Shown one piece after another: positions 4,513 to 39,427 of a stretch of 64,000 nt of DNA. The stretch covers positions 107,828-171,827 of the forward strand of contig DUAE01000055.1 in assembly GCA_012960975.1 (NCBI GenBank), given 5' to 3'. The notes below the pieces were generated by a model. That model ran no database searches. It had not been told where the DNA came from and was given only the letters and a program-made list of their open reading frames with translations. The translations under genes were made by a program, and so were the position numbers. This DNA comes from Candidatus Poseidoniales archaeon (GTDB lineage Archaea > Thermoplasmatota > Poseidoniia > Poseidoniales > Thalassarchaeaceae). The number at the start of each line of letters is the position of its first letter. Within the stretch, counting starts at the first letter, position 1.

Positions 4513-5520
4513 ATGGAATTCCGGGAGGGTTGTTGGAGTTATGACGGCCAAGCTGCAGATAGGCTTTGGAATAAATCAGCTTTAGGGAGGCCAAAAAAAA
4601 ACGGCATTCTGCATTTAACATCTTCAGAATTATTGTTTTGCCATAAATACCGACACATCGATTTACCATCTACTAATTGGCTAATGGAGATGCTATCTTT
4701 GGAACCAAATTTAATTGATGAGTTTTCAATATTAGAAGCATTACGTATGCCAGGTAATCGAATTGTGTTACACAATCATCTACATCAAATGAACCATTCA
4801 TTCGAAAATAGCACTTGGGGATTGAGATGGGATTCAAATAGTCATCCAAGAAATAGTGATCCTGTTTCAGAAATACGTTGGTTTCGATCATCTGACCCAT
4901 TCGACCCTGTCGAATTAATAAAATGGAGCGAAGTAGTGGGGAAGAAGAACAGAATTGCTGAAATATTAATTGTTGATGAAGAACAAGCCGTTGTAACTTA
5001 TAATTTATCTAATAAATCGCCCAAGGGGCAGTTAATTCCGCCATCACAAGAAGTACTCCAAAAATTGAATTCAATAAATAGCATTAACATTGGTGAGGGA
5101 AACCATTTCTTCAATACTACCAAAATTTGGCCAGTGGAGCAATTAGGTATCCCAATGGATGAAGGTAGATTCGTAGATTCATATTCTGTAGAATTAATTC
5201 AAAATCAAAATTCTCTTTCTTCAGGTGCAAGAATTCTATCTGACCTTTTATCTAGAGGGTTACATCCAAGACCCGGATTCAAATACGGCACTCGATGGAG
5301 ATGTTATGATCAATCAATAGGCCAAGATCACGCCCCTTGGTTGATATCGGACCCTGACGAAAGATCAATGGATTGGGGAGATGCATGTCTGACATCTAGG
5401 TTGTCGTCGGGTGTTAACAAAACATGGCTTTATCCGGTCGAAAAAAATGGGATTTGGGGGTTTCTAGCAATTACTAGACCACCTGCCAATGCAAGATGGA
5501 ATAATCCGATTAGAAAATAA
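4513..5520 (+). CDS. endA: tRNA-splicing (intron) endonuclease, two-domain type
   Basis: 335 aa. The C-terminal catalytic-domain pattern is GFKYGTRWRCYD...DHAPWLI...SGVNKTWLY (Tyr/His/Lys triad context). The N-terminal ...LHLTSSELLFCHKY... resembles the EndA N-domain. The length fits the duplicated alpha'2 euryarchaeal type. Confidence 0.65.
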   Translation: MEFREGCWSYDGQAADRLWNKSALGRPKKNGILHLTSSELLFCHKYRHIDLPSTNWLMEMLSLEPNLIDEFSILEALRMPGNRIVLHNHLHQMNHSFENSTWGLRWDSNSHPRNSDPVSEIRWFRSSDPFDPVELIKWSEVVGKKNRIAEILIVDEEQAVVTYNLSNKSPKGQLIPPSQEVLQKLNSINSINIGEGNHFFNTTKIWPVEQLGIPMDEGRFVDSYSVELIQNQNSLSSGARILSDLLSRGLHPRPGFKYGTRWRCYDQSIGQDHAPWLISDPDERSMDWGDACLTSRLSSGVNKTWLYPVEKNGIWGFLAITRPPANARWNNPIRK

Positions 5521-7524
5521 TTAATATTCTGTTTCGTCATTTGGCTGAAGTTTTTGATTGGTTTTATCTTTACCTCCACTGATAATAGAAAAAGCCAGAA
5601 GAATTGTTATCATAAAAATTCCATTAGAAGGTTCTGAAAGCCATGAAAGCATTGAATTCGAATCAAAAGATGATTCGGCTTCTAAAACAATTTGAATTCT
5701 TTGTTCTATTCCGAAATCGTCGACAAAAATTATTTCCCCTCTAGCGACCATACCTGGAACCAATAAACCATCAGGGTCAATTTCGATTGCTATTCCATCT
5801 CCTGAGGTTATTTCACCTTGAGAAAGAACAGTAGAAATTCTTGATGCAGCCCCATCTATCGTGATATCATAATTTCGAGAACCCGTTCCTGCATAATCAA
5901 GATTAACAATAATTTGAGATTTATGTTTAGAATCAATTTTCAAATTAACCTCTTTCGTAATTATTCGGTTGCCAACTCTATACCAATCTAATTCAAAATT
6001 TGTTGAGTCAGAATTTGAGCAACCCATCAATCCATTGATTTTTCCCGCTGAAGGAGAACTGCTATCGACTTCGATAATTTTTATTAAATTCAATCCTTCT
6101 GGTATAATTATTGAATCAATATAATTTAGGCTGGGAAAGGATGAAATATTGTAATTAAGATTACAGGAAATTGGGGCAATGACTTCAACAAAAGCCGACT
6201 CACCATCTAATAATTCAATCGGTGATCGTGGGGGTATCACTTTTACAGAATCAACAGATTGAGTTGGAGAGATTGTAATTACCGCACTATCAGCTGTTAT
6301 TTGAAAAACTTCGGCTACCCAATTAACTAATCTACCTCGATGATCCCTGAGTGACATCCCATTTTCATAATTAATACCTCCAAATACATCTCCAGATTGA
6401 AAAGGGTCCCCAGTACTACCACTATCTCGATTACGGATTAACGCATCATCACCATCTGCTTCGATAATAATTACCCAAGCATTTTTCGGATCGGTATTGA
6501 CTAAATTATTTCGTTCATCGCCATTATTTCTATTTTGATGCTCGACCAAAATTCCTGAGCCGGGTAAACTTGAATCAAAACCATGATTTGAACGATATGA
6601 AATATGGAAATATTCATTTTCTGAACTTTCAATTGAAAGATAATTCCCTCCATTAGATAACGGAGATAATTCAAAATCACCTCCAACATATGGATCGATA
6701 ATTATTGATCTATTCGCACCTATAATATCCAAGGTCGAAGCAATTGGTAGTGCGGGAGAATTCCCATTTCCATTCCAATTACCACTGGCCATCAATCCCC
6801 AATCACCTACGCCATTCCAAGAACGAGTGGGTAATTCACTATGAACATCATAGAGATCTAATGCCCCCATCTGATGTATCATTTCATGAGCAATAGTCCC
6901 CATTCCAGACTCAGTGGATGCAATTGTGTAATGGGAAATTGTCCACTCATCAAGTTTTATCGGCTGATCTAATTCAGAAAAATGACTCCAAATTGAATCT
7001 GTACCTCCGCCTATTTCTTGTGGATTTGCTGAATGGAGAATTAATAATCTATCAATAATTCCATCCTCATTTAAATCCCATTGTGAAAGGTCTTTGCCAG
7101 TCAATATAGATGTTACAACCTGTTTTACCAATTCACCAACTCCAGCACCATCAAGTCCGTAATCTCGTTCATCAGAACTATCTGCACCCCAAAATTTCAA
7201 TGATTCGACAGATTCCCAAGCGTCTCCAAATAATGTAGTTACAACGATTGAATTATTAGCAGAAACTTGAGAAATATAAGATTCTACAGATTCTGAGCCA
7301 GATAATTGTGACAGGGCGGCATCTTTATCGAATTCATTAGATGGAAAAGATACTTGGAGGACTAGCCAATTTTCTCTAGGTTGGATACCTACTAAAAAAT
7401 TATCTTCATTTATCGGATCCTCTGCATTTGACTCAAGCCAATCATTGACCAATGCTGGATTTAAATTCACAAATAACCCGAATAACAATAATGTGACTGC
7501 AGCAATGGCCCTCGCTGCATTCAT
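5521..7524 (-). CDS. Secreted zinc metalloprotease (M6/InhA-like HExxH) with a C-terminal TM anchor
   Basis: Signal peptide MNAARAIAAVTLLLFGLFVN. The zinc motif TIAHEMIHQMGALDLYD resembles the HExxHxxGxxDxYD of the M6 family. C-terminal TM GIFMITILLAFSIISGG. Confidence 0.5.
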   Translation of the reverse strand: MNAARAIAAVTLLLFGLFVNLNPALVNDWLESNAEDPINEDNFLVGIQPRENWLVLQVSFPSNEFDKDAALSQLSGSESVESYISQVSANNSIVVTTLFGDAWESVESLKFWGADSSDERDYGLDGAGVGELVKQVVTSILTGKDLSQWDLNEDGIIDRLLILHSANPQEIGGGTDSIWSHFSELDQPIKLDEWTISHYTIASTESGMGTIAHEMIHQMGALDLYDVHSELPTRSWNGVGDWGLMASGNWNGNGNSPALPIASTLDIIGANRSIIIDPYVGGDFELSPLSNGGNYLSIESSENEYFHISYRSNHGFDSSLPGSGILVEHQNRNNGDERNNLVNTDPKNAWVIIIEADGDDALIRNRDSGSTGDPFQSGDVFGGINYENGMSLRDHRGRLVNWVAEVFQITADSAVITISPTQSVDSVKVIPPRSPIELLDGESAFVEVIAPISCNLNYNISSFPSLNYIDSIIIPEGLNLIKIIEVDSSSPSAGKINGLMGCSNSDSTNFELDWYRVGNRIITKEVNLKIDSKHKSQIIVNLDYAGTGSRNYDITIDGAASRISTVLSQGEITSGDGIAIEIDPDGLLVPGMVARGEIIFVDDFGIEQRIQIVLEAESSFDSNSMLSWLSEPSNGIFMITILLAFSIISGGKDKTNQKLQPNDETEY

Positions 7525-27549: not shown

Positions 27550-28473
27550 TTATTCATTTAGTCTATCGATGAGGTCTGATTTCTTTCCAGAAACCGGTTT
27601 TCCTTGAGATTTAAGCAATTCTTTGAGTTCAGTAACCTTCATCGAGGAATAGTCTATTGATTCAGATTCATCTTCAAGTTCAGGTTCTTCTTTAAGTTCA
27701 GATTCTACGGAATCATCAACGATTTCATCACTAATGTCATCGGCATCTTCGTCCGCTTCATCTACATTTTCTTCAGTGCCTGAAGCATCTCTAATCTTAG
27801 CCTCTTCTGCATCTGCAGATTCTTGAGCATGAATCTCATCCAGTGTTGGTCCATCCTCGACAAGAACACCAGATTGGAGAAGTTGAGTCCTACGAATAAT
27901 AACTGTACGAACAGGTTGAATTTTAGATACTGATTCTTCAATTGTATTTTCGATTGAGCCATCTAACACTGCTTTTTGCAATGCGAGCCAGGTCATTGAA
28001 GCACCAGTAGTTAGAATCGCATCTCTTGCTATTGTCCTCATCTCTTGCTTCTGGCTTGATTTAGCACGACCTCTAGTGATGATTAGAGGCTTGAATCGAA
28101 CATAATATCCATCTTCAGTAACAACATCTACTGTATCATCTATTTTTCCACGATCTCGGCGAACTTGTCGGCGAATATGATCCTTCAAATGCTCATGACC
28201 GACAAATTCGGTCAATGCATCACCAGATACGACATCAATAACTCGAAATTGAATTTTTACATGCATCTTAGAAAAGTCGCCGTCTAGTTCATTTTGCATA
28301 ATTTCATAACTACGGCCAATCAAAAATTCGTTATCTTCAGCGAGTGTTTCGCCAATAACTCTGAACGACCATGGATTACGAGGTGCTCTGATGGTGAACC
28401 AGCGTTTTGCCTTCCACTTATCTTTCTGTTTACGTGCCGCTACTCTTGCTGATGCTCCTTTTGCCATTTCCAA
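27550..28473 (-). CDS. rps3ae: 30S ribosomal protein S3Ae (eS1) with an acidic linker and a C-terminal SAP-like domain
   Basis: KDKWKAKRWFTIRAPRNPWSFRVIGETLAEDNEFLIGRSYEI...TEFVGHE is the S3Ae core (about 205 aa). It is followed by an Asp/Glu-rich stretch and MKVTELKELLKSQGKPVSGKKSDLIDRLNE. Confidence 0.85.
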   Translation of the reverse strand: MEMAKGASARVAARKQKDKWKAKRWFTIRAPRNPWSFRVIGETLAEDNEFLIGRSYEIMQNELDGDFSKMHVKIQFRVIDVVSGDALTEFVGHEHLKDHIRRQVRRDRGKIDDTVDVVTEDGYYVRFKPLIITRGRAKSSQKQEMRTIARDAILTTGASMTWLALQKAVLDGSIENTIEESVSKIQPVRTVIIRRTQLLQSGVLVEDGPTLDEIHAQESADAEEAKIRDASGTEENVDEADEDADDISDEIVDDSVESELKEEPELEDESESIDYSSMKVTELKELLKSQGKPVSGKKSDLIDRLNE

Positions 28474-30456: not shown

Positions 30457-31503
30457 CTATTTTTTCCCTCGAGCGGTGCCAAATTTTCTTCCACGCTTTT
30501 TATTGAGACCACCATCTTTTGATACAGTTAATTGTTCGTCTGACTCTCTTATTCCACCAATAATCAATGAACCGCTATTCAATAATTGTTCAGTAAGAGA
30601 ATCGGCCATGTCCTCATCTTGATCTGGAGTCCTCAATGCATCTTTAACAGAAAGATTATGATCCCGGATAACTCTTTCACGCTCCTCATTCGCCGCTTTA
30701 ATCTCATCTCGAATTTCATTACATTGGTCAATTATTTCTTTCATGTTTTCATGGACTTCGTTTGCAGCTTCCCGAGAAGTGATATAGGCTGCATGTAGGC
30801 GATCACCCTCTGCTCTCAAAAAATCCCTCTCTTCCAAAATTGGCTTAACATCTTCCCAAATTCCATCTGCTTGCTTGTGGCAATCAATCATAGCCTGATG
30901 CTCTGAATCCGCCTCCGACTTCAAAATAATTATGGAACCATCCATATCATTGAGGTCAATCTTGATAATTTCAAATTCAGCCACGGCTGGTAATAATTCA
31001 TTTCTTCGAGAAATCAAAGATTTTAGTTTTTTTAACAATTTATTTTCGGACTCTAGAGTTAAGCGACCATCGGTCATTATTGTATTTTCAATACGATCGA
31101 TTTCACTAACCGTTTCAGTCAATTGAAGTACGATGGATTTAGAATTCTTTTCATCAGAACGACGACCTTTCTTTTGGTTGATTAATTCTCGAATCTGGTT
31201 TTGAATCTCATCCCTCTTTGCTTTGTGAACTTTCGCTTGATCCCTAATGGTTTTTTGCTCATCTAACCGAGCCTTAATTGATTCACGCAATTCTTTTCCT
31301 TGTTCCTGAATTGCATTCCGAGAATCTGCAGCTCGTCGAGCATCTTCATTGTGACCATTGCGCTGATCACGCATACGGCGCATGCGTGTTTCCATAGCAT
31401 GTAGACGAGTTCTCAAATCGTCATCGGGCTTCTCAACATCTTCAGGCACAACTCGCCGAGAAGGGATCCCTTCTTCAATGAAACTACTTGAATCAGAGCC
31501 CAA
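30457..31503 (-). CDS. Coiled-coil protein A (archaeal COG1340-like), basic C-terminal tail
   Basis: 348 aa, Glu/Lys/Arg/Asp-rich heptad-like sequence. Central IDRIENTIMTDGRLTLESENKLLKKLKSL element; His-containing second half (EHQAMIDCHKQAD...EVHENMKE); tail KKRGRKFGTARGKK. Overlaps the upstream gene by 11 nt. Confidence 0.6.
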   Translation of the reverse strand: MGSDSSSFIEEGIPSRRVVPEDVEKPDDDLRTRLHAMETRMRRMRDQRNGHNEDARRAADSRNAIQEQGKELRESIKARLDEQKTIRDQAKVHKAKRDEIQNQIRELINQKKGRRSDEKNSKSIVLQLTETVSEIDRIENTIMTDGRLTLESENKLLKKLKSLISRRNELLPAVAEFEIIKIDLNDMDGSIIILKSEADSEHQAMIDCHKQADGIWEDVKPILEERDFLRAEGDRLHAAYITSREAANEVHENMKEIIDQCNEIRDEIKAANEERERVIRDHNLSVKDALRTPDQDEDMADSLTEQLLNSGSLIIGGIRESDEQLTVSKDGGLNKKRGRKFGTARGKK

Positions 31504-33061
31504 TTAGTGAAGTGAAAAATGGTAATATCGGTGAAAGAACAACAATGGCTGCACCTGCTAAAAATAAGCCACCAACTGTCAGTCGTAGCCTAGTAAACAT
31601 GTCCGGCCGATTTTGTACTGTTAATACTCGGCCAGAGATTAAATTCCCATAAATGTCTTCAAGACGTACAGAGACTGTTGCTTCTCCAGTATGGGCTGGC
31701 AAAAGACTCTGCCAAATTATATCTGTGGATTTTAGCGCATCTGGTAGTTGTTGAATGATCGAAAGGTTGCTTTTTCCGATTTTTGAAGGTTCGTACGGAT
31801 CAATCCGAAGGTTGTAAACACATTCATTAGGACGGAAATCAGGAGTTTGAACTCGTAGAATTAAATCGACAGAAGAGTCTCCTTGATTTAGAATGAAAGC
31901 GAACAAATTTGCTCGGCCAACAACTAAATTTTCCATGTCAACATCAAACCAAATATTTCTCGAATGCCCCTTTTCTAAATGCATTCTCATTCGGTCATGC
32001 AATCTAAAAAAAGACGCGCAACGGTTTCTAGCACGTATCAATAATCTATCCCACGTCTCTTCACCTAATTCTGGGTGATTGAATAATTCATCAATAATTT
32101 GAATCGGCATTAATAATTCCAATGAACTCCTAAATTCATTTTCGTTCATCAATCCCGCTCTCCGAATATGCAATAAATGTAACAAACCTTCTTGTAAATT
32201 TGTCATACTTCTACCGTCATCAATATTTTTCTGAACAAGCCGGAGATAATCAGAAATTTTCACTGCAAGGAGTGGATCTACATGCGCTCTAATTACATCA
32301 CTAAATGGCCGACGCAAAAGAGCAGGGTGAACTGGGGGGGAGAATGCATCGAGCATCCCCCAAGGTTCTGATGCGTTGAATCGGGAACGATTAGATACCA
32401 TATGAACACCATGACCCGACAACAACGCCCCCGTTGAAAGTGCCAAGAGAATAGGTATCCCCCTTGTAAAATCAGAAAATTGTAAACTGAGCAGTAGGAA
32501 TATTCCGGACAAAAACATCAGAAGAGTTGTAGCTCCAACCTGGCGAATTGATCCTTCAATAGTTTCTTTCATCTCTGCATATCCATGAGCACTTTTGAAA
32601 GTAAATCCAGATGTAGTCAATCGCTCTGATTGAAGATGAAATATTTTTCTTGTGAGAATTAATAGCCTAAATAATACGATTAATAATCCAATATCTGCAA
32701 CCAAAATAAAAAGAGCTAAGATGTAAAATCCACGATTTACATTAACCTCTCCAATCAACGGTTGAGCATTTTCCACCCACCAATTTGGTGCTGAATTAGT
32801 GAATGATTGTGCAAGCCCAAATAGTAATATCACCAGCATTGGCAAAACGGAAACAAATCTTGTTCCTCGACTAATAAAAAGTCGATCAATACGAACTAAT
32901 ATGGACTCATATGATTGATATTTAGTTATCATGTCAGATTTGTGTGGGTATCTATGAATTGGATCATCTCTATTCACGGTAGAATCTAAAATAGGTGCTG
33001 AAGGAGGGGGGGTTTCTTTTGAGTTGTTATTTTCGTTCAAAATGTCATTGAATTCTTTCAT
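31493..33061 (-). CDS. Membrane protein, 522 aa (hypothetical)
   Basis: About 4 TM helices in the first half, a hydrophilic domain of about 270 aa and a C-terminal TM (VGGLFLAGAAIVVLSPILPFF). In an operon between the DtxR-like gene and coiled-coil A. Confidence 0.5.
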   Translation of the reverse strand: MKEFNDILNENNNSKETPPPSAPILDSTVNRDDPIHRYPHKSDMITKYQSYESILVRIDRLFISRGTRFVSVLPMLVILLFGLAQSFTNSAPNWWVENAQPLIGEVNVNRGFYILALFILVADIGLLIVLFRLLILTRKIFHLQSERLTTSGFTFKSAHGYAEMKETIEGSIRQVGATTLLMFLSGIFLLLSLQFSDFTRGIPILLALSTGALLSGHGVHMVSNRSRFNASEPWGMLDAFSPPVHPALLRRPFSDVIRAHVDPLLAVKISDYLRLVQKNIDDGRSMTNLQEGLLHLLHIRRAGLMNENEFRSSLELLMPIQIIDELFNHPELGEETWDRLLIRARNRCASFFRLHDRMRMHLEKGHSRNIWFDVDMENLVVGRANLFAFILNQGDSSVDLILRVQTPDFRPNECVYNLRIDPYEPSKIGKSNLSIIQQLPDALKSTDIIWQSLLPAHTGEATVSVRLEDIYGNLISGRVLTVQNRPDMFTRLRLTVGGLFLAGAAIVVLSPILPFFTSLIGL

Positions 33062-33070
33062 TATTTCACC

Positions 33071-33718
33071 TCAAATTATTCGAGCAAGGATACGGAAACC
33101 TATTTTCTCTGAAAATTGAAAAGTTTTTTCTCCAATAAAATATTCATTATTTGAATGAATTATTTTTTGACCTATTTCTATACCTAAATCATTAATGGTT
33201 CGATTTTCAACACCACTAAGCAAAATTACCTCAATTATCGCAGAAGTATCAGGCGGTAATGTTTGGATGGGAATAAGCATACCGCTACCCACAATTGTGG
33301 GTTGTCGATTGATTAAAGGAATTTTTTCACCGTCTAAACGAAGTTCGGGGAAGCCCAACAATTCTTCTAATCGTGATTCCAATTCATCATTTACTACGTG
33401 TTCCATCTTACAGGACATCTCGTCAATATCTCCTTGAAAACCAATAATATCTCGCAATAATATTTGTAGAAGAGATTCTCGACGTTTGATTTTTGCAGCA
33501 TGATGGAATCCTTCAGAAGTTAATCTCGAACCACGGTATGGAATGTGCGTGACAAGTCCCCTCCTGGCAAGACGTTGTATCATTTCAGTTGTCGACGCAG
33601 GGCTGACGTTCATCATCTCCGCTAATTGAGTTGTCTTGACTATTTCATCAGGTTGTTCGAAGTGTGCTTCAAAAATCCGTTTGAGATACATCTCTTCGTA
33701 TTCACTTAATTCACTCAT
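33071..33718 (-). CDS. DtxR/MntR-family metal-dependent transcriptional regulator with an FeoA/SH3-like C-terminal domain
   Basis: SEYEEMYLKRIFE..., wHTH TTQLAEMMNVSPASTTEMIQRLARRGLV, dimerisation/metal region TSEGFHHAAKIKRRESLLQILL...MEHV, then a small C-terminal beta-domain. Confidence 0.75.
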   Translation of the reverse strand: MSELSEYEEMYLKRIFEAHFEQPDEIVKTTQLAEMMNVSPASTTEMIQRLARRGLVTHIPYRGSRLTSEGFHHAAKIKRRESLLQILLRDIIGFQGDIDEMSCKMEHVVNDELESRLEELLGFPELRLDGEKIPLINRQPTIVGSGMLIPIQTLPPDTSAIIEVILLSGVENRTINDLGIEIGQKIIHSNNEYFIGEKTFQFSEKIGFRILARII

Positions 33719-33723
33719 TCAAA

Positions 33724-35616
33724 TCACCCAATCTCTGAAATAAATTCTGAACGGCAGGCAGGACATCGAGATCTAATCGGGCGTTTAGCAATTGGAACAC
33801 GTAATACTTGGTCACATGTTGGACAGGATAGGAGATCATCCATTGATTGAGAAGTGAGATTCTGTTCTGGTTCAAAATTATTCGACAATTGATTCTCTAA
33901 GTTTACTGAATCATTCAAAACCTTCGTTTGGAAATTATTAACGGAAAATTGTTGAGTACACGCTGGACATTTTACATCACCTTCATGAGTTGATGGAATG
34001 TTCAACCTCTGATTACAACCAGGGCATTGAATTTCTTTTTTAGAATCAATTTGGTTTCGTCGTGAAATTCTAGTTTCCGATAAGCGTTTTGATTTAGCAT
34101 CAGTTGTAGAAGGAGTTCGTTGAGAAACTGCTCGATAAACAACAGCACTAGCCATTACCAGAGACAAACCCGATAATGCTCCAAAAACAGCAGCAGCCAT
34201 ATTGAATGGTAGAACTATACCTGTATCGATTTTTTCTTCAGCGATAATAGATATTTGCTCCGAAGTCACTAAACCTTCCATCAGCCAAATTATTTCTATA
34301 TCGACGGTTTGAGAATAGCTCCACGAAGGAATTGACAGTGAACTAGAAAATGAACCACCTGGTCCTACCGGCGAAACATTTTGTTCAGCGAGGATTAAGT
34401 TATCTGCGACATTTACTATTCGAATAATTCCAATTTGTGAAGATTCGGTGCCAGAATTATTTAACCAATAATTAATTGAAATGGGTTCTGATAATTTGGC
34501 TTGAGATGGAATAATATCTCCTATTTCAACGGTTGTTAATATAGCAGGGGGGTGCAATTCAAGAATTAAAATTGCATCGCCATCAGATGCAAACCATCCA
34601 TTTGCCGAACCAATTATCTGTAACCGATCCCCATCAGGGTGACCTAGAATTACTGAAATCATCCTTATTCCAGGAGACATTTCAAGGTTTAATGACTGGA
34701 TTTCAGTGTATTCATTATTGTTTTTTAATTGAATTGAAACATCAATCTCTCTTTCTTTTCCATCACCCATCAACAACTCAAAATTAATAATCAATCCATC
34801 ATCATTAGTCCAATCCATGTCCACTAATTGGATAGAAATTTGTTGTGCTTCTAAAATCACTAGATCCATGGTTCCATTCAAGTTGACTGAAACTCCACCT
34901 GTTGGTGAAATTATTCTCCAATCAATAGACTGTTGTCCATCTTGTCCAATCAAAAATGTAGTAATCACCTCCCTGCTTGAACCTGGAATAATATATACCG
35001 AATCGCCAATTGAGATAATATTTCCATCCGGTTTGTAAAGACCCAATTCAACTTCACCACCATATTCACCATTATTATGAACAAGAATAGATGCAACTAA
35101 CTCATCTCCGACATGTGCGGGTTGACCGATGATAGCAACATCAGGAGTTCCTGCTGCAGTGAAATTGATGGGGTTAGGGCCAATTCTCAACTCAAGTATT
35201 TCAAACACGTCTGAATTAATAAGTTCAAGTTTACACAAAAGGTTTCCTTCGTACACCGGTCCAAATTGAATCTCGATTATAGAATAATCATCTTCATTCA
35301 ATATTCCACTATTACCACCGTACCATTGGCCATTAAATCCAAAACTGAATTGCCAAGACTCATTCCCAACTGAAATCTGAGATAGTTCGATACTCAATCG
35401 AACAATATCTCCAGAAGAAATTGTAGAGTTTTCATTATCTAACCCTGTCGAACCGTCTACAATCCTTACATCCCAAAGAGATGATTCTTCTATAGAATAA
35501 TTACCGACCTCTGCATGGGTCTCAGTAACAAAAATTAATATTATCAACAATACTATTGATGAACGAGAGATAGAAGTCAAACTCTCACCGATACTCATCA
35601 ATACTCGTCGAATCAA
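33724..35616 (-). CDS. Single-pass surface protein: CARDB-like extracellular repeats, TM, cytoplasmic tail with two MJ0042-type zinc ribbons
   Basis: Signal/TM at the N-terminus. LVHNNGEYGGEVELGLYKPDGN and WLNNSGTESSQIGIIRIV resemble CARDB repeats. TM AAAVFGALSGLSLVMASAVVY. Then CPGCNQRLNIP...VKCPACTQQFSV and CPTCDQVLRVP...SRCPACRSEF. Confidence 0.6.
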   Translation of the reverse strand: MIRRVLMSIGESLTSISRSSIVLLIILIFVTETHAEVGNYSIEESSLWDVRIVDGSTGLDNENSTISSGDIVRLSIELSQISVGNESWQFSFGFNGQWYGGNSGILNEDDYSIIEIQFGPVYEGNLLCKLELINSDVFEILELRIGPNPINFTAAGTPDVAIIGQPAHVGDELVASILVHNNGEYGGEVELGLYKPDGNIISIGDSVYIIPGSSREVITTFLIGQDGQQSIDWRIISPTGGVSVNLNGTMDLVILEAQQISIQLVDMDWTNDDGLIINFELLMGDGKEREIDVSIQLKNNNEYTEIQSLNLEMSPGIRMISVILGHPDGDRLQIIGSANGWFASDGDAILILELHPPAILTTVEIGDIIPSQAKLSEPISINYWLNNSGTESSQIGIIRIVNVADNLILAEQNVSPVGPGGSFSSSLSIPSWSYSQTVDIEIIWLMEGLVTSEQISIIAEEKIDTGIVLPFNMAAAVFGALSGLSLVMASAVVYRAVSQRTPSTTDAKSKRLSETRISRRNQIDSKKEIQCPGCNQRLNIPSTHEGDVKCPACTQQFSVNNFQTKVLNDSVNLENQLSNNFEPEQNLTSQSMDDLLSCPTCDQVLRVPIAKRPIRSRCPACRSEFISEIG

Positions 35617-35692
35617 TTGTCCGTATCAATGAAACCCATGTTCTAAGTCACATAGTGACCTTTATGCACACCATCCAAGTGCCCCGAATCCA

Positions 35693-36577
35693 ATGGATAC
35701 CGATGCACTGCTGTCTGTCTCTCCCACAGATATGGCGAAAGCCTTACTTGCCCGTCGGCAGATGTTGAAAGAGCAATTACCGACAGTAATTCGAACACTA
35801 GAAGCAGAGGAACAATCGTTGGCTCCAAAGGTCGAGCGGGTAGTGAATTCACACCGTGTATCGAATACTAAAGTAAGTGAATTAAAATCAATTAGGAATG
35901 AATCTCAAATCAAGGCAGGAAAGTCACTTAAACAAGTAAAACTCTCACATGAAAAATTGCTTTCATCGGGTGGAATGATAAATTTAGATCCTATGTGGGT
36001 TAAGGAAAAATTACTCGAAGAACTTGAAGAAATAGAAGAAAAAATCCAAACATCTGCACTCGATCACAAAGCTGAAGGAAAACTCATCGACCGCAGAAAA
36101 AAATTGGTTGAAAAGAATGAAAATTGGTTAAAAGAACGTAGAGATTCGAACCCCGAGATGGCAATATACATCGAAGCAAGGAAAAAAATGAGTGAATATT
36201 ACCGGGAAGCAGACAAAACTCACCAGAACATGTTAGCCATGGTAAAAAAGGCTCAACCGCTTCATGAAAAACAGTTATTATTGAAAAATGAACTGCTTGA
36301 GATACGCAGGCAACTCGACCGAGCAAAGGAATTAATGGCTCAATCTGAACGTACTATTTCATACTGGGAAAGAAGATTGAATGATGGATTTGGCGAGTTA
36401 AATACCGGTTTCTCTGATTTATTAATTGCACAACAAAAGGTAGTCTCTGGTGGAAATTCTAGTTTCGCCAGAAAAAAACAGAAGAAGAACAAGAAACCCT
36501 CCCTAGGAAAAAGCGACTCCATTAAAAAATCACCTAAAAAAATTGAAGATAGTTCAAATGGAGGTGAAGAAGAGTGA
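35693..36577 (+). CDS. Coiled-coil protein B (COG1340-like), basic C-terminal tail
   Basis: 294 aa. LEEIEEKIQTSALDHKAEGKLIDRRKKL element plus the second-half ADKTHQNMLAMVKKA. Tail ARKKQKKNKKPSLGK. Its stop overlaps the GTG start of the next gene (GTGA). Confidence 0.6.
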   Translation: MDTDALLSVSPTDMAKALLARRQMLKEQLPTVIRTLEAEEQSLAPKVERVVNSHRVSNTKVSELKSIRNESQIKAGKSLKQVKLSHEKLLSSGGMINLDPMWVKEKLLEELEEIEEKIQTSALDHKAEGKLIDRRKKLVEKNENWLKERRDSNPEMAIYIEARKKMSEYYREADKTHQNMLAMVKKAQPLHEKQLLLKNELLEIRRQLDRAKELMAQSERTISYWERRLNDGFGELNTGFSDLLIAQQKVVSGGNSSFARKKQKKNKKPSLGKSDSIKKSPKKIEDSSNGGEEE

Positions 36578-37536
36578 GTAGCGAAACAAAAGATGGGATG
36601 TTTTCGGACCTTGAAGAATTATCACATACTGAAGTGAAACAACTGGTCAAGGATGCTGATATTCAAGTTCGGTCCCTTGAACAAGAGCATCAAGATATTC
36701 GAGATGAACGAAAAAATCAAATTACTCTTGTAAAATCAATGCGCCTAGCAGTTGGAGATATGGAAGAGGGAAATCTGGAGCGGAAGAAATTGCTTCAACG
36801 ATTTCATTCTGCAAGGAAATCTTTAGAAATTGCGCGAAATCAAAGAGATGCTGTAAATAGAGCAGTTCCCCCTCCGGTTAATATTCTAGAAGAATGGTTG
36901 GGAGAAACTCATCAAAGGTTAGTTACGATAAACAATGATTTGACATCAGTTCCAACGTTAAATCGGGAAATTGAGATGTTCAAACGGTTCTTCGAAATAC
37001 AGGCATCAGTTGTAAGGAAATATGATTCAGAAAAATATCATTCTGAATATGTAAAACATATTGAATCTATAAGGGAAATAACTTCAGAATTGGATAAAAC
37101 TAGAAAACCTAAACCTTCAAAATCAGAGCAATCAGATGTAGAAACGGAAAACAATGTATCTCATTCAGAACTCAGAAAATTAAGTAAACGAATTTCTAAT
37201 ATTGATAAAAAATTAGACTCACTTTACTCAGAGATAAAAGAACAAAAGAAGGAACTTAAACGGCTTCGGTCGTATGTAAATATCACAAGAGGGAGAGGGA
37301 AACCGATTAAAATTGCAGAAGTAAAAAGTCGTGCGCAGAGTGGCGGGTCACTGAATGCTGCTGAACTTGGAGCCCTCCTTAATTCAGGAGGATTAACTGA
37401 ATTAACAAGCGAGGATTCTTCAAAGACATTAAAATCTAAACTAAATAAATCCAATTCAAAACACCCAAGAAAAAAAATTGGAGTTGCCCGCCGAGGAGCT
37501 AGGAGAGGGACTCTAGCTACACGCAGAGATGACTAA
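36574..37536 (+). CDS. Coiled-coil protein C (COG1340-like), Arg-rich C-terminal tail
   Basis: 320 aa. GTG start preceded by GGAGGTGA. Heptad-rich sequence; tail HPRKKIGVARRGARRGTLATRRDD. Confidence 0.6.
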   Translation: MSSETKDGMFSDLEELSHTEVKQLVKDADIQVRSLEQEHQDIRDERKNQITLVKSMRLAVGDMEEGNLERKKLLQRFHSARKSLEIARNQRDAVNRAVPPPVNILEEWLGETHQRLVTINNDLTSVPTLNREIEMFKRFFEIQASVVRKYDSEKYHSEYVKHIESIREITSELDKTRKPKPSKSEQSDVETENNVSHSELRKLSKRISNIDKKLDSLYSEIKEQKKELKRLRSYVNITRGRGKPIKIAEVKSRAQSGGSLNAAELGALLNSGGLTELTSEDSSKTLKSKLNKSNSKHPRKKIGVARRGARRGTLATRRDD

Positions 37537-37618
37537 ACGCTAGGACGAAAACGCCGCACTGCTACTATGGTATTATATGCAACATGAATGCGCCGAGAAT
37601 ACAGGAGAGGAGTGTTTG

Positions 37619-38488
37619 ATGGATTACGCAGAAGTTCGAAGCACCCTTATTCCGAAGAATGAATCATTAGATGAAAAATTAAATTTATTCAGAAGCGATA
37701 GAGACGAATGGAATTCCAGAGTGAAGAAATATTTGATTGAAAGAAACGATATTAATCGACAAGTGAAGGAATTAATTTCAGAAGTCCAAAAGCAGAAACT
37801 GGTTAGAGACGAAGCAAATTCTAGCGTTAAAGAATTAAAAATCATAAGGGCAGAACATTCTGAGAAACTTAAAGCATTACGCGCAGAATTAAAAGAAAAA
37901 AAACCTGATGAAAAAGAAAAGTTCGAATCTAAGAAGGAACAGAAAAGATCTGAAAGACAGATTAGTACTGACATTGAGAGGTTAGATAACAAATATCAAA
38001 GAGGAGCTTTTCAGGATAACGAAAAGAAATTCGAACGTAGTATGAAAAAATTATATCAAGAATTAAAAGCTGTCAAAGCTATTAAAATGTTGAACAAATT
38101 CGCAGGATTAGAAGCAGACATTCGTGCTGCTTCTTCACTGCAAGAAAATTCCCATAAGACCGTTGAAAAAGCTGTCGGTACGGCTCAAGAAGCTCATGAT
38201 CTAATGATCGAGTTATCCGAAGAGGTAGATCGTTTGAGAGAAATAGCAAATACTGCCCAGGAAGGAGTAATTCGCTCAAAAAGAGAGGCCGATTCATTGC
38301 ATAGGAAATATATTGTATCACTTCGAAGTATTCATTCAATTCAAGATTTGTTAAAGGCAATGAACACGCAAGAACGTGAGAGTGAAGAAGATGGGAACGA
38401 AAAGTTAGAGATCAATGATTTGATGACTAGATTGATGGCGGGTGACACACTTTCCACTGAAGAATTGATGGCTTTACAACGAAATTGA
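37619..38488 (+). CDS. Coiled-coil protein D (COG1340-like)
   Basis: The ATG at 37619 is preceded by GGAGAGGAGTG; the track ORF opens at 37577. Contains the IERLDNKYQRGAFQDNEKKFERSMKKL element and AQEAHDLMIELSEEVDRL. No basic tail. Confidence 0.6.
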   Translation: MDYAEVRSTLIPKNESLDEKLNLFRSDRDEWNSRVKKYLIERNDINRQVKELISEVQKQKLVRDEANSSVKELKIIRAEHSEKLKALRAELKEKKPDEKEKFESKKEQKRSERQISTDIERLDNKYQRGAFQDNEKKFERSMKKLYQELKAVKAIKMLNKFAGLEADIRAASSLQENSHKTVEKAVGTAQEAHDLMIELSEEVDRLREIANTAQEGVIRSKREADSLHRKYIVSLRSIHSIQDLLKAMNTQERESEEDGNEKLEINDLMTRLMAGDTLSTEELMALQRN

Positions 38489-39427
38489 TCACTTATTATC
38501 GTATAATTTTCCATTCCGGCCATGTAGGATTTGTTCATCTCCGCCTTCAAATTGTAAATTCCAGCCAGGAATTAGTAAGATAGAGCTAGACATTGAAATT
38601 GTATCTAAATCTGCTCTCCACCATTCGAGTAACATACTTTTTACTTTGGATGATGATTCAGAACCTTTCTGAATCCTTCTTGTATCTAGTAAAGGTTTGA
38701 GATTTTTAAATAATTTTTCATTAGATAACCAAGAATTACTAGATTTTATTTTCCTTAAATTTAGATATGATTCAAGAACCTCGTCATTAGAAAACTCACC
38801 AGTTGATTCGGACCAAGGGTCTTCGATTATTTGCCAATTCTTGGATTCCATTTCCCCACTAGGGCCAACTAAACTTCCAGAGATGCTCCATAATTTACAT
38901 TCCAAAACAATTGGAATGGTATTCACGGTTGCCCAACCTCTGTTATCAAGCCAAGATTCTAAATCTACAATTGGGCGCAGAAAAATAGTCTCAACGTCTT
39001 GATTATAGATTGATTTAAAATAATTCTGAGTAGTCACATCATCTGTTTTTGTATTAAGAATTGACTCTATATCGCCATTCAATACCGCTTTACCAATCCA
39101 CGAAGAAAACAGAGGGGAATCCCAAAATTGAATGTTATCTAATTTAGACAAAAGCAGTTCCGATTGAGATGTCAAATTTCGTTCACTAAGGAACCAATGA
39201 TTTCCTTGGGGAGCATCCACTAACCATCTCTCGATTTCATTCACATCAATGGGCAAAATCCCCTTTGGGATATACCAAACAAATATTTTATAATCTTCAG
39301 AGAAATGAACTTCGGGTAATGCAAAGATTGAGCCAATGCACTTAAAATCAAAAGGAGTGAAATTCATTTCCTCCGAATTAAGGATGTCACCCCGTGAAGC
39401 GAACAGTGCTCGCACGGTCTCTTCCAT
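38489..39427 (-). CDS. Hypothetical protein, 312 aa
   Basis: Long ORF directly downstream of rpl30e on the same strand. Trp/Ser-rich, with no motif recognised. Confidence 0.45.
   Translation of the reverse strand: MEETVRALFASRGDILNSEEMNFTPFDFKCIGSIFALPEVHFSEDYKIFVWYIPKGILPIDVNEIERWLVDAPQGNHWFLSERNLTSQSELLLSKLDNIQFWDSPLFSSWIGKAVLNGDIESILNTKTDDVTTQNYFKSIYNQDVETIFLRPIVDLESWLDNRGWATVNTIPIVLECKLWSISGSLVGPSGEMESKNWQIIEDPWSESTGEFSNDEVLESYLNLRKIKSSNSWLSNEKLFKNLKPLLDTRRIQKGSESSSKVKSMLLEWWRADLDTISMSSSILLIPGWNLQFEGGDEQILHGRNGKLYDNK

Follow-up and report, generated by a model that had tools for sequence, protein, structure and literature searches.

The list of top-priority archaeal proteins of unknown function is headed by arCOG01159, represented by TK2157 of Thermococcus kodakarensis, a coiled-coil protein present in 492 of 524 genomes and linked to a SerB-type phosphatase (PMC6393860). 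In T. kodakarensis the gene for TK2157 precedes arcS, a gene for tRNA modification (PMC6393311), and a chromosome-associated fraction in which the protein was found also contained RNA polymerase, ribosomal proteins and EF-1alpha (PMC7325993). Since the family heads that list, any handle on its function is valuable. Here we analyse a divergent gene cluster in a 64,000-nucleotide stretch (the window) of contig DUAE01000055.1, from a Candidatus Thalassarchaeaceae metagenome-assembled genome (MAG; Marine Group IIb, Poseidoniales; 1.59 Mb, 82% complete). Marine Group II (MGII) is one of the most abundant groups of archaea in surface seawater. The cluster encodes four coiled-coil proteins, named A to D, a DtxR-family regulator, a surface protein of 630 residues (S630) and a membrane protein of 522 residues (TM522). 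Profile comparisons indicate that A, B, C and D are true, strongly diverged paralogues of the DUF7121 (COG1340) family, very probably the same family as arCOG01159. Our preferred reading, held tentatively and at slightly less than even confidence, is that they are rod-shaped adaptors tied to RNA or translation, under the control of a dedicated DtxR paralogue that would also regulate the two membrane proteins.

When A to D were compared all against all by composition-corrected BLASTP, none of the six pairs was significant, so that profiles were needed. These were built from 16-20 orthologues per protein taken from related genomes. The resulting hhalign comparisons were collinear, with probabilities of 98.1% for A and D (258 columns), 97.8% for A and C (275 columns), 96.9% for B and D (170 columns), 96.1% for A and B (117 columns) and 91.2% for C and D; the direct comparison of B and C reached just 28%. 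Controls in which the profile columns were reversed, retaining composition and helical periodicity, gave at most 15% (n=16). A sequence-only reading of the window had described a Glu/Lys/Arg heptad-like build in all four proteins. This description holds: depending on the protein, 28-43% of 28-residue windows pass a heptad periodicity test, versus about 5% after its own sequence is shuffled. The profile scores against reversed controls, together with a heptad signal well above shuffles, argue for homology and not mere composition, as that reading had supposed.

D carries the family assignment. It matches DUF7121 (PF23435) at 47.2 bits (E 2.6e-12, profile positions 44-303 of 307), above the curated Pfam cut-off of 29 bits, and the result was repeated on the genome. 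As single sequences, A (17.1 bits) and B (21.8 bits) fall under the cut-off and C has no Pfam DUF7121 match; profile-profile comparison with D indicates the membership of all three. The resemblance to COG1340 noticed from the sequence is borne out, D orthologues being labelled at JGI 'uncharacterized coiled-coil DUF342 family protein', which we take to be the current COG1340 label. An exhaustive search with the D profile gathered D-type relatives in about 2,080 clusters. Among the longer ones, three (P0160, P0181 and P0267) are fusions of a HAD/SerB-type phosphatase with DUF7121, and a HAD-like ORF, recognised by reading the sequence, recurs near the D-type gene in one family; no HAD phosphatase gene was seen within the window's cluster. 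DUF7121 occurs in 121 of 121 Thermoplasmatota genomes, mostly in one or two copies, the copy number that had been expected outside the window. Because the phosphatase fusions match the description of arCOG01159 and the family is ubiquitous, DUF7121 (COG1340) is very probably arCOG01159, with TK2157 as its representative. Our literature search on DUF7121/COG1340 and on Poseidoniales uridylyltransferases found no characterisation.

The A and D types are old. Outgroup genomes, that is those from outside Poseidoniales, have one D-type and one A-type copy, cleanly split by the A and D HMMs. The D-type copy matches the D profile with E values of 1e-34 to 1e-53 and ends in ...GEKLSTEDLMxLQKAGLL, and the A-type copy, whose end reads ...ALKxGKKIxL, matches the A profile at about 1e-39 to 1e-41. 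This clean separation makes the A/D split older than the order Poseidoniales. By these profiles, D is the orthologue of the canonical D-type protein and A that of a second ancient lineage, the A type, found throughout Thermoplasmatota. B, C and the basic tails were found in Poseidoniales only.

Lys/Arg-rich tails on A, B and C had been pointed out before, and counts over the last 30 residues agree: 10 Lys or Arg in A, 8 in B and 11 in C, against 3 in D. A bears an added basic extension, ...KKRGRKFGTARGKK, in which G342 and R345 are invariant. The tail of B is Lys-rich and then turns into an acidic end. C is nearest to A, with which it shares an LLNSGxL motif and a KxGxxRG-type basic tail. D has no basic tail and finishes with the C-terminal family motif, ...LMAGDTLSTEELMALQRN. 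Since outgroup A-type proteins have no basic tail, we regard the tails of A, B and C as innovations. D resembles described DUF7121/COG1340/arCOG01159 proteins in its length of about 300 residues, its helical-hairpin architecture, [KR]RDxxN repeats on helix 1, His residues on helix 2 and a C-terminal GxxLSTE[DE]L. The window departs from the family as seen elsewhere in having four copies instead of one or two, in their divergence (at most 47 bits, compared with up to 190 bits in other Thermoplasmatota), in the basic tails of three of them, and in their fixed place alongside genes for a DtxR paralogue and two membrane proteins.

An AlphaFold2 model of D has a pLDDT of 82.5 overall and of about 95 on both arms. 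It predicts an antiparallel helical hairpin with arms of roughly 100 residues (helices 17-108 and 176-287), closed by two tip helices (126-141 and 149-171); A, B and C would have the same shape. The central sequence element singled out by the sequence-only reading falls, according to this model and the alignments, at the tip of the hairpin, with the conserved His residues on the helix that runs back. No membrane segment is present in A to D. Comparison of the model with the PDB using Foldseek and a wider fold search returned generic antiparallel coiled coils only: SMC arms, the dynein stalk, chemoreceptors, PspA and prefoldin. SMC coiled-coil arms are the best structural analogues (Z 13.9, rmsd 4.2 over 220 residues); PspA (Z 10.7) and IST1-CHMP1B (Z 9.7) came up as two of many generic helical matches. 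Searching PDB sequences with a D profile gave no relative of solved structure. Like the arms of SMC and Rad50 proteins (for instance the Pyrococcus yayanosii Smc segment, PDB 5xg2), D is modelled as a long antiparallel two-helix rod. It differs from them in being a single chain folded back on itself, with no significant sequence kinship. No ATPase head or hinge domain is found in A to D, the SMC-model matches being confined to the coiled-coil region at about 21 bits against a cut-off of 567, and the strength of the structural match is that expected of any long helical hairpin.

The genes around canonical copies outside MGII point to translation. Our outgroup sample comprised 80 loci, 62 of them with at least 2.5 kb of sequence downstream of the D-type gene. 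SRP54, the signal recognition particle (SRP) subunit, is encoded downstream on the same strand in 39 of these 62, and no more than 3.6 kb upstream in 4 further loci; with flanks of 1.5 kb, too short, the link was invisible. The outgroup SRP54 has N, G and M domains (2.6e-69). The array of D-type gene, SRP54, PF04013 RNA methyltransferase and adenylosuccinate lyase occurs in Methanomassiliicoccales and other Thermoplasmata (L103 4899-9913 (+) and 38 similar loci). In six outgroup loci, Rfam matched distant tRNAs only, and the 200-300 nt that separate the D-type gene from SRP54 gave no RNA gene. A second phylum gives a similar picture: an Archaeoglobi-like MAG (L182) has prefoldin-alpha, FtsY, SRP54, two further genes and then the D-type gene. 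Other neighbours of D-type genes include an HTH_3/zinc-ribbon protein, MBF1-like by reading, with Sua5 and an M24 gene; Nep1; and, in further loci, a D-aminoacyl-tRNA deacylase gene. Methanothrix has Cgi121 and an M24 gene beside the D-type gene. M24 is the methionine-aminopeptidase family. These neighbours have translation in common: modification of tRNA and rRNA, the ribosome itself, and the co-translational steps of processing and targeting.

Fusions add to this picture. A locus from the same class as MGII (L081 7096-9589 (-)) encodes an N-terminal SAP domain fused to DUF7121 immediately after the genes for the ribosomal stalk proteins uL10(P0) and P1. A search for longer fused forms had one match only, a single protein of 1,676 residues that joins NACHT to DUF7121 (P0275). 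A KH_2 fusion (P0224), barely over the cut-off and alone on a 1.7-kb contig, is treated as weak. Within the window, ribosomal protein S3Ae itself carries a SAP domain (PF02037, 1.6e-12) at its C-terminus, behind an acidic linker, so that in this lineage SAP serves on a ribosomal protein.

The likeness to SMC arms invites another view of the proteins, as nucleoid rods: basic tails or SAP domains would contact DNA, and the rods would organise the chromosome or anchor it, perhaps on the membrane. Binding DNA is the classical role of SAP. TK2157, moreover, came from a chromosome-associated fraction, one that is not specific because ribosomal proteins and EF-1alpha were also there (PMC7325993). The fold matches are no better than for any long helical hairpin, the neighbours of canonical copies belong to translation, tRNA modification and SRP and not to replication or segregation, and SAP occurs on S3Ae in the window's own genome. 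We therefore hold chromosomal rods to be distinctly unlikely.

The arrangement of the cluster, A-TM522-DtxR-S630 facing B-C-D, is conserved in related genomes of all three families of the order. An orthologue of D was present in 40 of 41 related genomes. Counted across 20 loci, B was found in 16 (both loci of genus g11 leave no room for it), S630 in 18 and DtxR, embedded in the cluster, in 17. Mere compositional similarity, or a lack of conservation in related genomes, had been named beforehand as the outcomes that would undo the grouping of these genes; paralogy and the conserved cluster are the opposite of both. The window's genus has the most compact form. Other Thalassarchaeaceae genera carry, between C and D, genes for a GNAT acetyltransferase, a protein of about 120 residues and a KaiC/RecA-like ATPase (L021 7764-9367; L028 3981-5153). 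The 120-residue protein looks Roadblock/LC7-like by eye, and its orthologue in L023 has no Pfam match. None of the three genes was found in the window's genome, which is 82% complete.

A further variant concerns C. Orthologues of C in Poseidoniaceae are about 700-730 residues long, and their N-terminal half is a Cid1/MTPAP-type terminal nucleotidyltransferase. The L023 protein, for example, has 730 residues (4923-7115 (-)) and matches PF22600 (4.8e-30) and PAP_assoc (3.3e-11). The fusion is present in 26 of 34 Poseidoniaceae genomes. Its C-terminal half is orthologous to the window's C and has the same basic tail, and the gene occupies the same place after B, to which it is likewise translationally coupled. 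The window's C, in contrast, has no enzyme domain; the nucleotidyltransferase was found in none of 35 Thalassarchaeaceae genomes, nor elsewhere in the window's genome.

On the preferred reading, A to D would not be cytoskeletal filaments but adaptors working beside the RNA and translation apparatus. The hairpin is envisaged as a stiff spacer or a rod for docking. RNA, or some other polyanion, would be the ligand of the basic tails on A, B and C. The C rod of Poseidoniaceae carries a nucleotidyltransferase of the type that acts on RNA 3' ends. Both operons start from one short region with a single TATA-like element and a unique palindrome, to which the cluster DtxR would probably bind in a metal-dependent manner. 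DtxR control of this common region would mean that the rods and the two membrane proteins are produced together, and with joint production some of the rods, chiefly A, would come to act at the membrane. The analysis shows the paralogy, the modelled hairpin of D, the conserved cluster, the assignment to lineages, the fusions, the gene order, the operator-like site and the occurrence in RNA libraries; binding to RNA, a connection with translation, regulation by DtxR and membrane action of A to D are steps that we infer.

Several observations weigh against this reading. The 39 loci with SRP54 come for the most part from related Thermoplasmata and Methanomassiliicoccales, so that much of the count may reflect inherited gene order. 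The gap between the D-type gene and SRP54, being mostly 200-300 nt, leaves no translational coupling, and the SRP54 gene of the window's genome lies about 125 kb from the cluster. The absence of the nucleotidyltransferase from the window's family makes the Poseidoniaceae fusion an indirect witness for the window. The equivalence of TK2157 and DUF7121 is very probable, binding of RNA, the ribosome or SRP by any DUF7121 protein is putative, and DtxR binding to the palindrome is conjectural. SAP domains and basic tails bind DNA too, and the chromosome-associated origin of TK2157 fits that property; the tails could equally bind acidic lipids. The place of A in an operon beside TM522 and S630, and the exported CARDB protein encoded ahead of an A-type gene in another family, fit an envelope role for A. 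Finally, DNA carry-over may contribute to the RNA-library contigs described below.

A wider proposal would make DUF7121/arCOG01159 an archaea-wide co-translational ribosome rod that works with SRP54 and with nascent-chain and tRNA-processing enzymes. The MGII four-member set would then be a specialisation in which the basic-tailed members tether translating ribosomes or particular RNAs (in Poseidoniaceae also an enzyme that tails RNA) to specific membrane proteins, by way of their cytoplasmic domains or zinc-ribbon tails, under a dedicated metal-sensing repressor. We consider this proposal speculative and improbable. The cluster is a natural experiment, in which one family has been split into four specialised forms, one of them fused to an RNA 3'-end enzyme in a sister lineage. 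The context of the canonical copy (SRP54, stalk, t6A genes, M24, Nep1, tRNA deacylase, SAP and HAD fusions) provides hypotheses testable in T. kodakarensis and Haloferax volcanii. A link to translation or targeting, if true, would add a new component to a core archaeal process; if it fails, the envelope and nucleoid explanations become leads.

The regulator of the cluster had been assigned to the DtxR family, and domain matches establish this: PF01325 for the helix-turn-helix (8.6e-17) and PF02742 for the metal-binding and dimerisation domain (8.2e-15), the same domains as in DtxR, IdeR and MntR. It carries an extra C-terminal domain of about 75 residues, and its best solved relative is 8pvt (3e-18). 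Met10, Cys103, Glu106 and His107 presumably correspond to Met10, Cys102, Glu105 and His106 of DtxR, according to a manual alignment to the DtxR sequence. The ancillary metal-site residues look substituted by eye, and the gene, unlike those of its described relatives, stands in a non-metal gene cluster. A second DtxR of the same genome, 158 residues long and without the C-terminal extension, adjoins a ZIP transporter gene (L037, contig C28 of G000, 603-1950). DtxR beside a metal transporter is the usual setting of a metal-homeostasis regulator. The presence of this shorter copy beside ZIP marks the cluster DtxR as a separate paralogue.

The divergent spacer contains a perfect palindrome, GTCACATAGTGAC, which occurs once in the whole 1.59-Mb assembly. 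It lies at -46 from the ATG of B in six of six loci of the genus, even where B is only about 67% identical; it is exact in the window, L016 and L017 and has one mismatch in L018, L033 and L034. The GTCAC half-site is also present in L023, L026 and L032 and recurs in Poseidoniaceae. The adjoining TTTAT element has an unchanged offset throughout the loci of the order, and its distance from the ATG implies a leaderless or near-leaderless B mRNA. We infer that the cluster DtxR autoregulates both operons through the palindrome, a putative operator whose 5-bp arms and 3-bp spacer set it apart from the classical 19-bp DtxR box. Three separate marine studies yielded RNA-library contigs over all four coiled-coil genes, and the junctions of B with C and of DtxR with S630 are also spanned. 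This coverage fits co-transcription of the cluster genes; the stretches they leave bare, including much of TM522 and S630, are uninformative.

A regulator of this kind also raises the idea of a metal-stress module, a DtxR regulon of His-bearing coiled coils and membrane proteins that would handle or store iron or manganese. The retention of DtxR in 17 of the 20 loci, the operator-like palindrome and the conserved His residues on the return helix would suit it. However, the conserved His residues are few (about 2% of residues) and are paired with conserved Arg, Asp or Asn on the facing helix; their pattern is family-wide, and the family is near-universal and not tied to metal genes elsewhere. 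The transporter-linked DtxR is the genome's other copy, and the cluster itself has no transporter, siderophore or ferritin gene. A role in metal handling is accordingly very unlikely in our view.

The two membrane proteins have no characterised relative among those we found. S630 is, as had been described, a surface protein with a zinc-ribbon tail. It consists of an N-terminal hydrophobic signal or anchor, a CARDB-type ectodomain (CARDB is matched at 7.7e-9 in the L023 orthologue), a C-terminal membrane helix and a cytoplasmic tail, in which two CPxC...CPxC zinc ribbons are joined by an acidic linker. The eight Cys residues of the ribbons are invariant in 16 orthologues across the order. For TM522, an AlphaFold2 model (pTM 0.72) begins with four membrane helices; a helical domain (about 250-365) and a beta-sandwich of Ig/CARDB-like type (about 370-485) come next, and one more membrane helix closes the chain. 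The positive-inside rule suggests that the large domain is cytoplasmic. TM522 has no Pfam or NCBIfam match. Fold searches of the PDB, and of a structure atlas by features and by shape, gave only generic Ig/CARDB-like sandwiches and unnamed relatives, and its family occurs only among hypothetical proteins of Thermoplasmatota.

The sequence-only reading had envisaged a membrane-attached filament or an envelope-to-cytoplasm coupling system. On this view the zinc-ribbon tail of S630, the cytoplasmic domain of TM522, or both would be docking sites for the rods, which would form a sub-membrane lattice or relay a surface signal. The translational coupling of A to TM522 within the operon of S630, the conservation of S630 and of its tail cysteines, and basic tails that could bind acidic lipids all agree with it. 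So does a locus from another Thermoplasmatota family (L078 1188-5029 (+)), where the A-type gene comes straight after that for an exported Ig/CARDB protein of 968 residues and is followed by mevalonate-pathway-type genes (HMG-CoA synthase/thiolase-like); our view of A-type neighbourhoods is based on four outgroup loci. However, no TM522 family member was found in three fairly complete genomes (G024, G019 and G022; 89-98% complete), and the two of these that were examined have kept the coiled-coil cluster. TM522 is not an obligatory partner, and some genera can do without it. Nearly all Archaea possess the canonical family, whose neighbours are housekeeping or translation genes; its fusions are to nucleic-acid-related or enzyme domains and not to membrane anchors, and A to D have no membrane segment and no sign of polymerisation. 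Scoring predicted binding of A to TM522 226-487 and to the S630 tail returned 0.00 (mark 0.32), which speaks neither for nor against. Nothing tested favours filaments, and the results obtained here do not support the original proposal; a membrane scaffold is, we think, unlikely, although a membrane-proximal role for A may be kept in view given its operon and the CARDB neighbour of the A-type gene.

The layout of the cluster is given in Table 1. The seven ORFs, the overlap of 11 nt between A and TM522, the length of the spacer and the 4-nt overlap of the B stop with the GTG of C are all as first described. The genes of the minus-strand operon, from S630 through DtxR and TM522 to A, are separated by 5 and 9 nt before that overlap. 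Shine-Dalgarno motifs had been proposed for C and D. That of C stands, a strong GGAGGTGA placed 6 nt ahead of the GTG; the annotated ATG of D has only a weak one. Since D orthologues start at about residue 14 of the window's D and an AGGAG lies ahead of Met15, the true start of D is probably Met15. The coding sequence of B contains a 19-nt tandem repeat of 2.2 copies.

Table 1. Features of the divergent cluster and its surroundings, in window positions
Feature	Position	Strand	Description
S3Ae	27550-28473	-	ribosomal protein with C-terminal SAP domain
Coiled-coil A	30457-31503	-	348 aa; last gene of the S630-DtxR-TM522-A operon
TM522	31493-33061	-	522 aa; polytopic membrane protein
DtxR	33071-33718	-	215 aa; DtxR/MntR-family repressor
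S630	33724-35616	-	630 aa; type-I surface protein
Divergent spacer	35617-35692		76 nt; control region common to both operons
Palindrome GTCACATAGTGAC	35647-35659		perfect; abuts TATA-like TTTAT
TTTAT, TATA-like	35661-35665		about 32 nt upstream of the ATG of B; single such element in the spacer
Coiled-coil B	35693-36577	+	294 aa; translationally coupled to C
Tandem repeat	36095-36136		19-nt unit, within B
Coiled-coil C	36574-37536	+	320 aa; GTG start
Coiled-coil D	37577-38488	+	303 aa as annotated; probable true start 37619
X312	38489-39427	-	312-aa orphan

Beyond D, the genes for L30e and RpoA'' are two genes away, an adjacency seen in only two of the three families. Between D and L30e lies X312, whose place is likewise kept in two of three families. 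This orphan has no Pfam or NCBIfam match; a language model gave a weak lead (0.89) to Mrr-type restriction-endonuclease folds.

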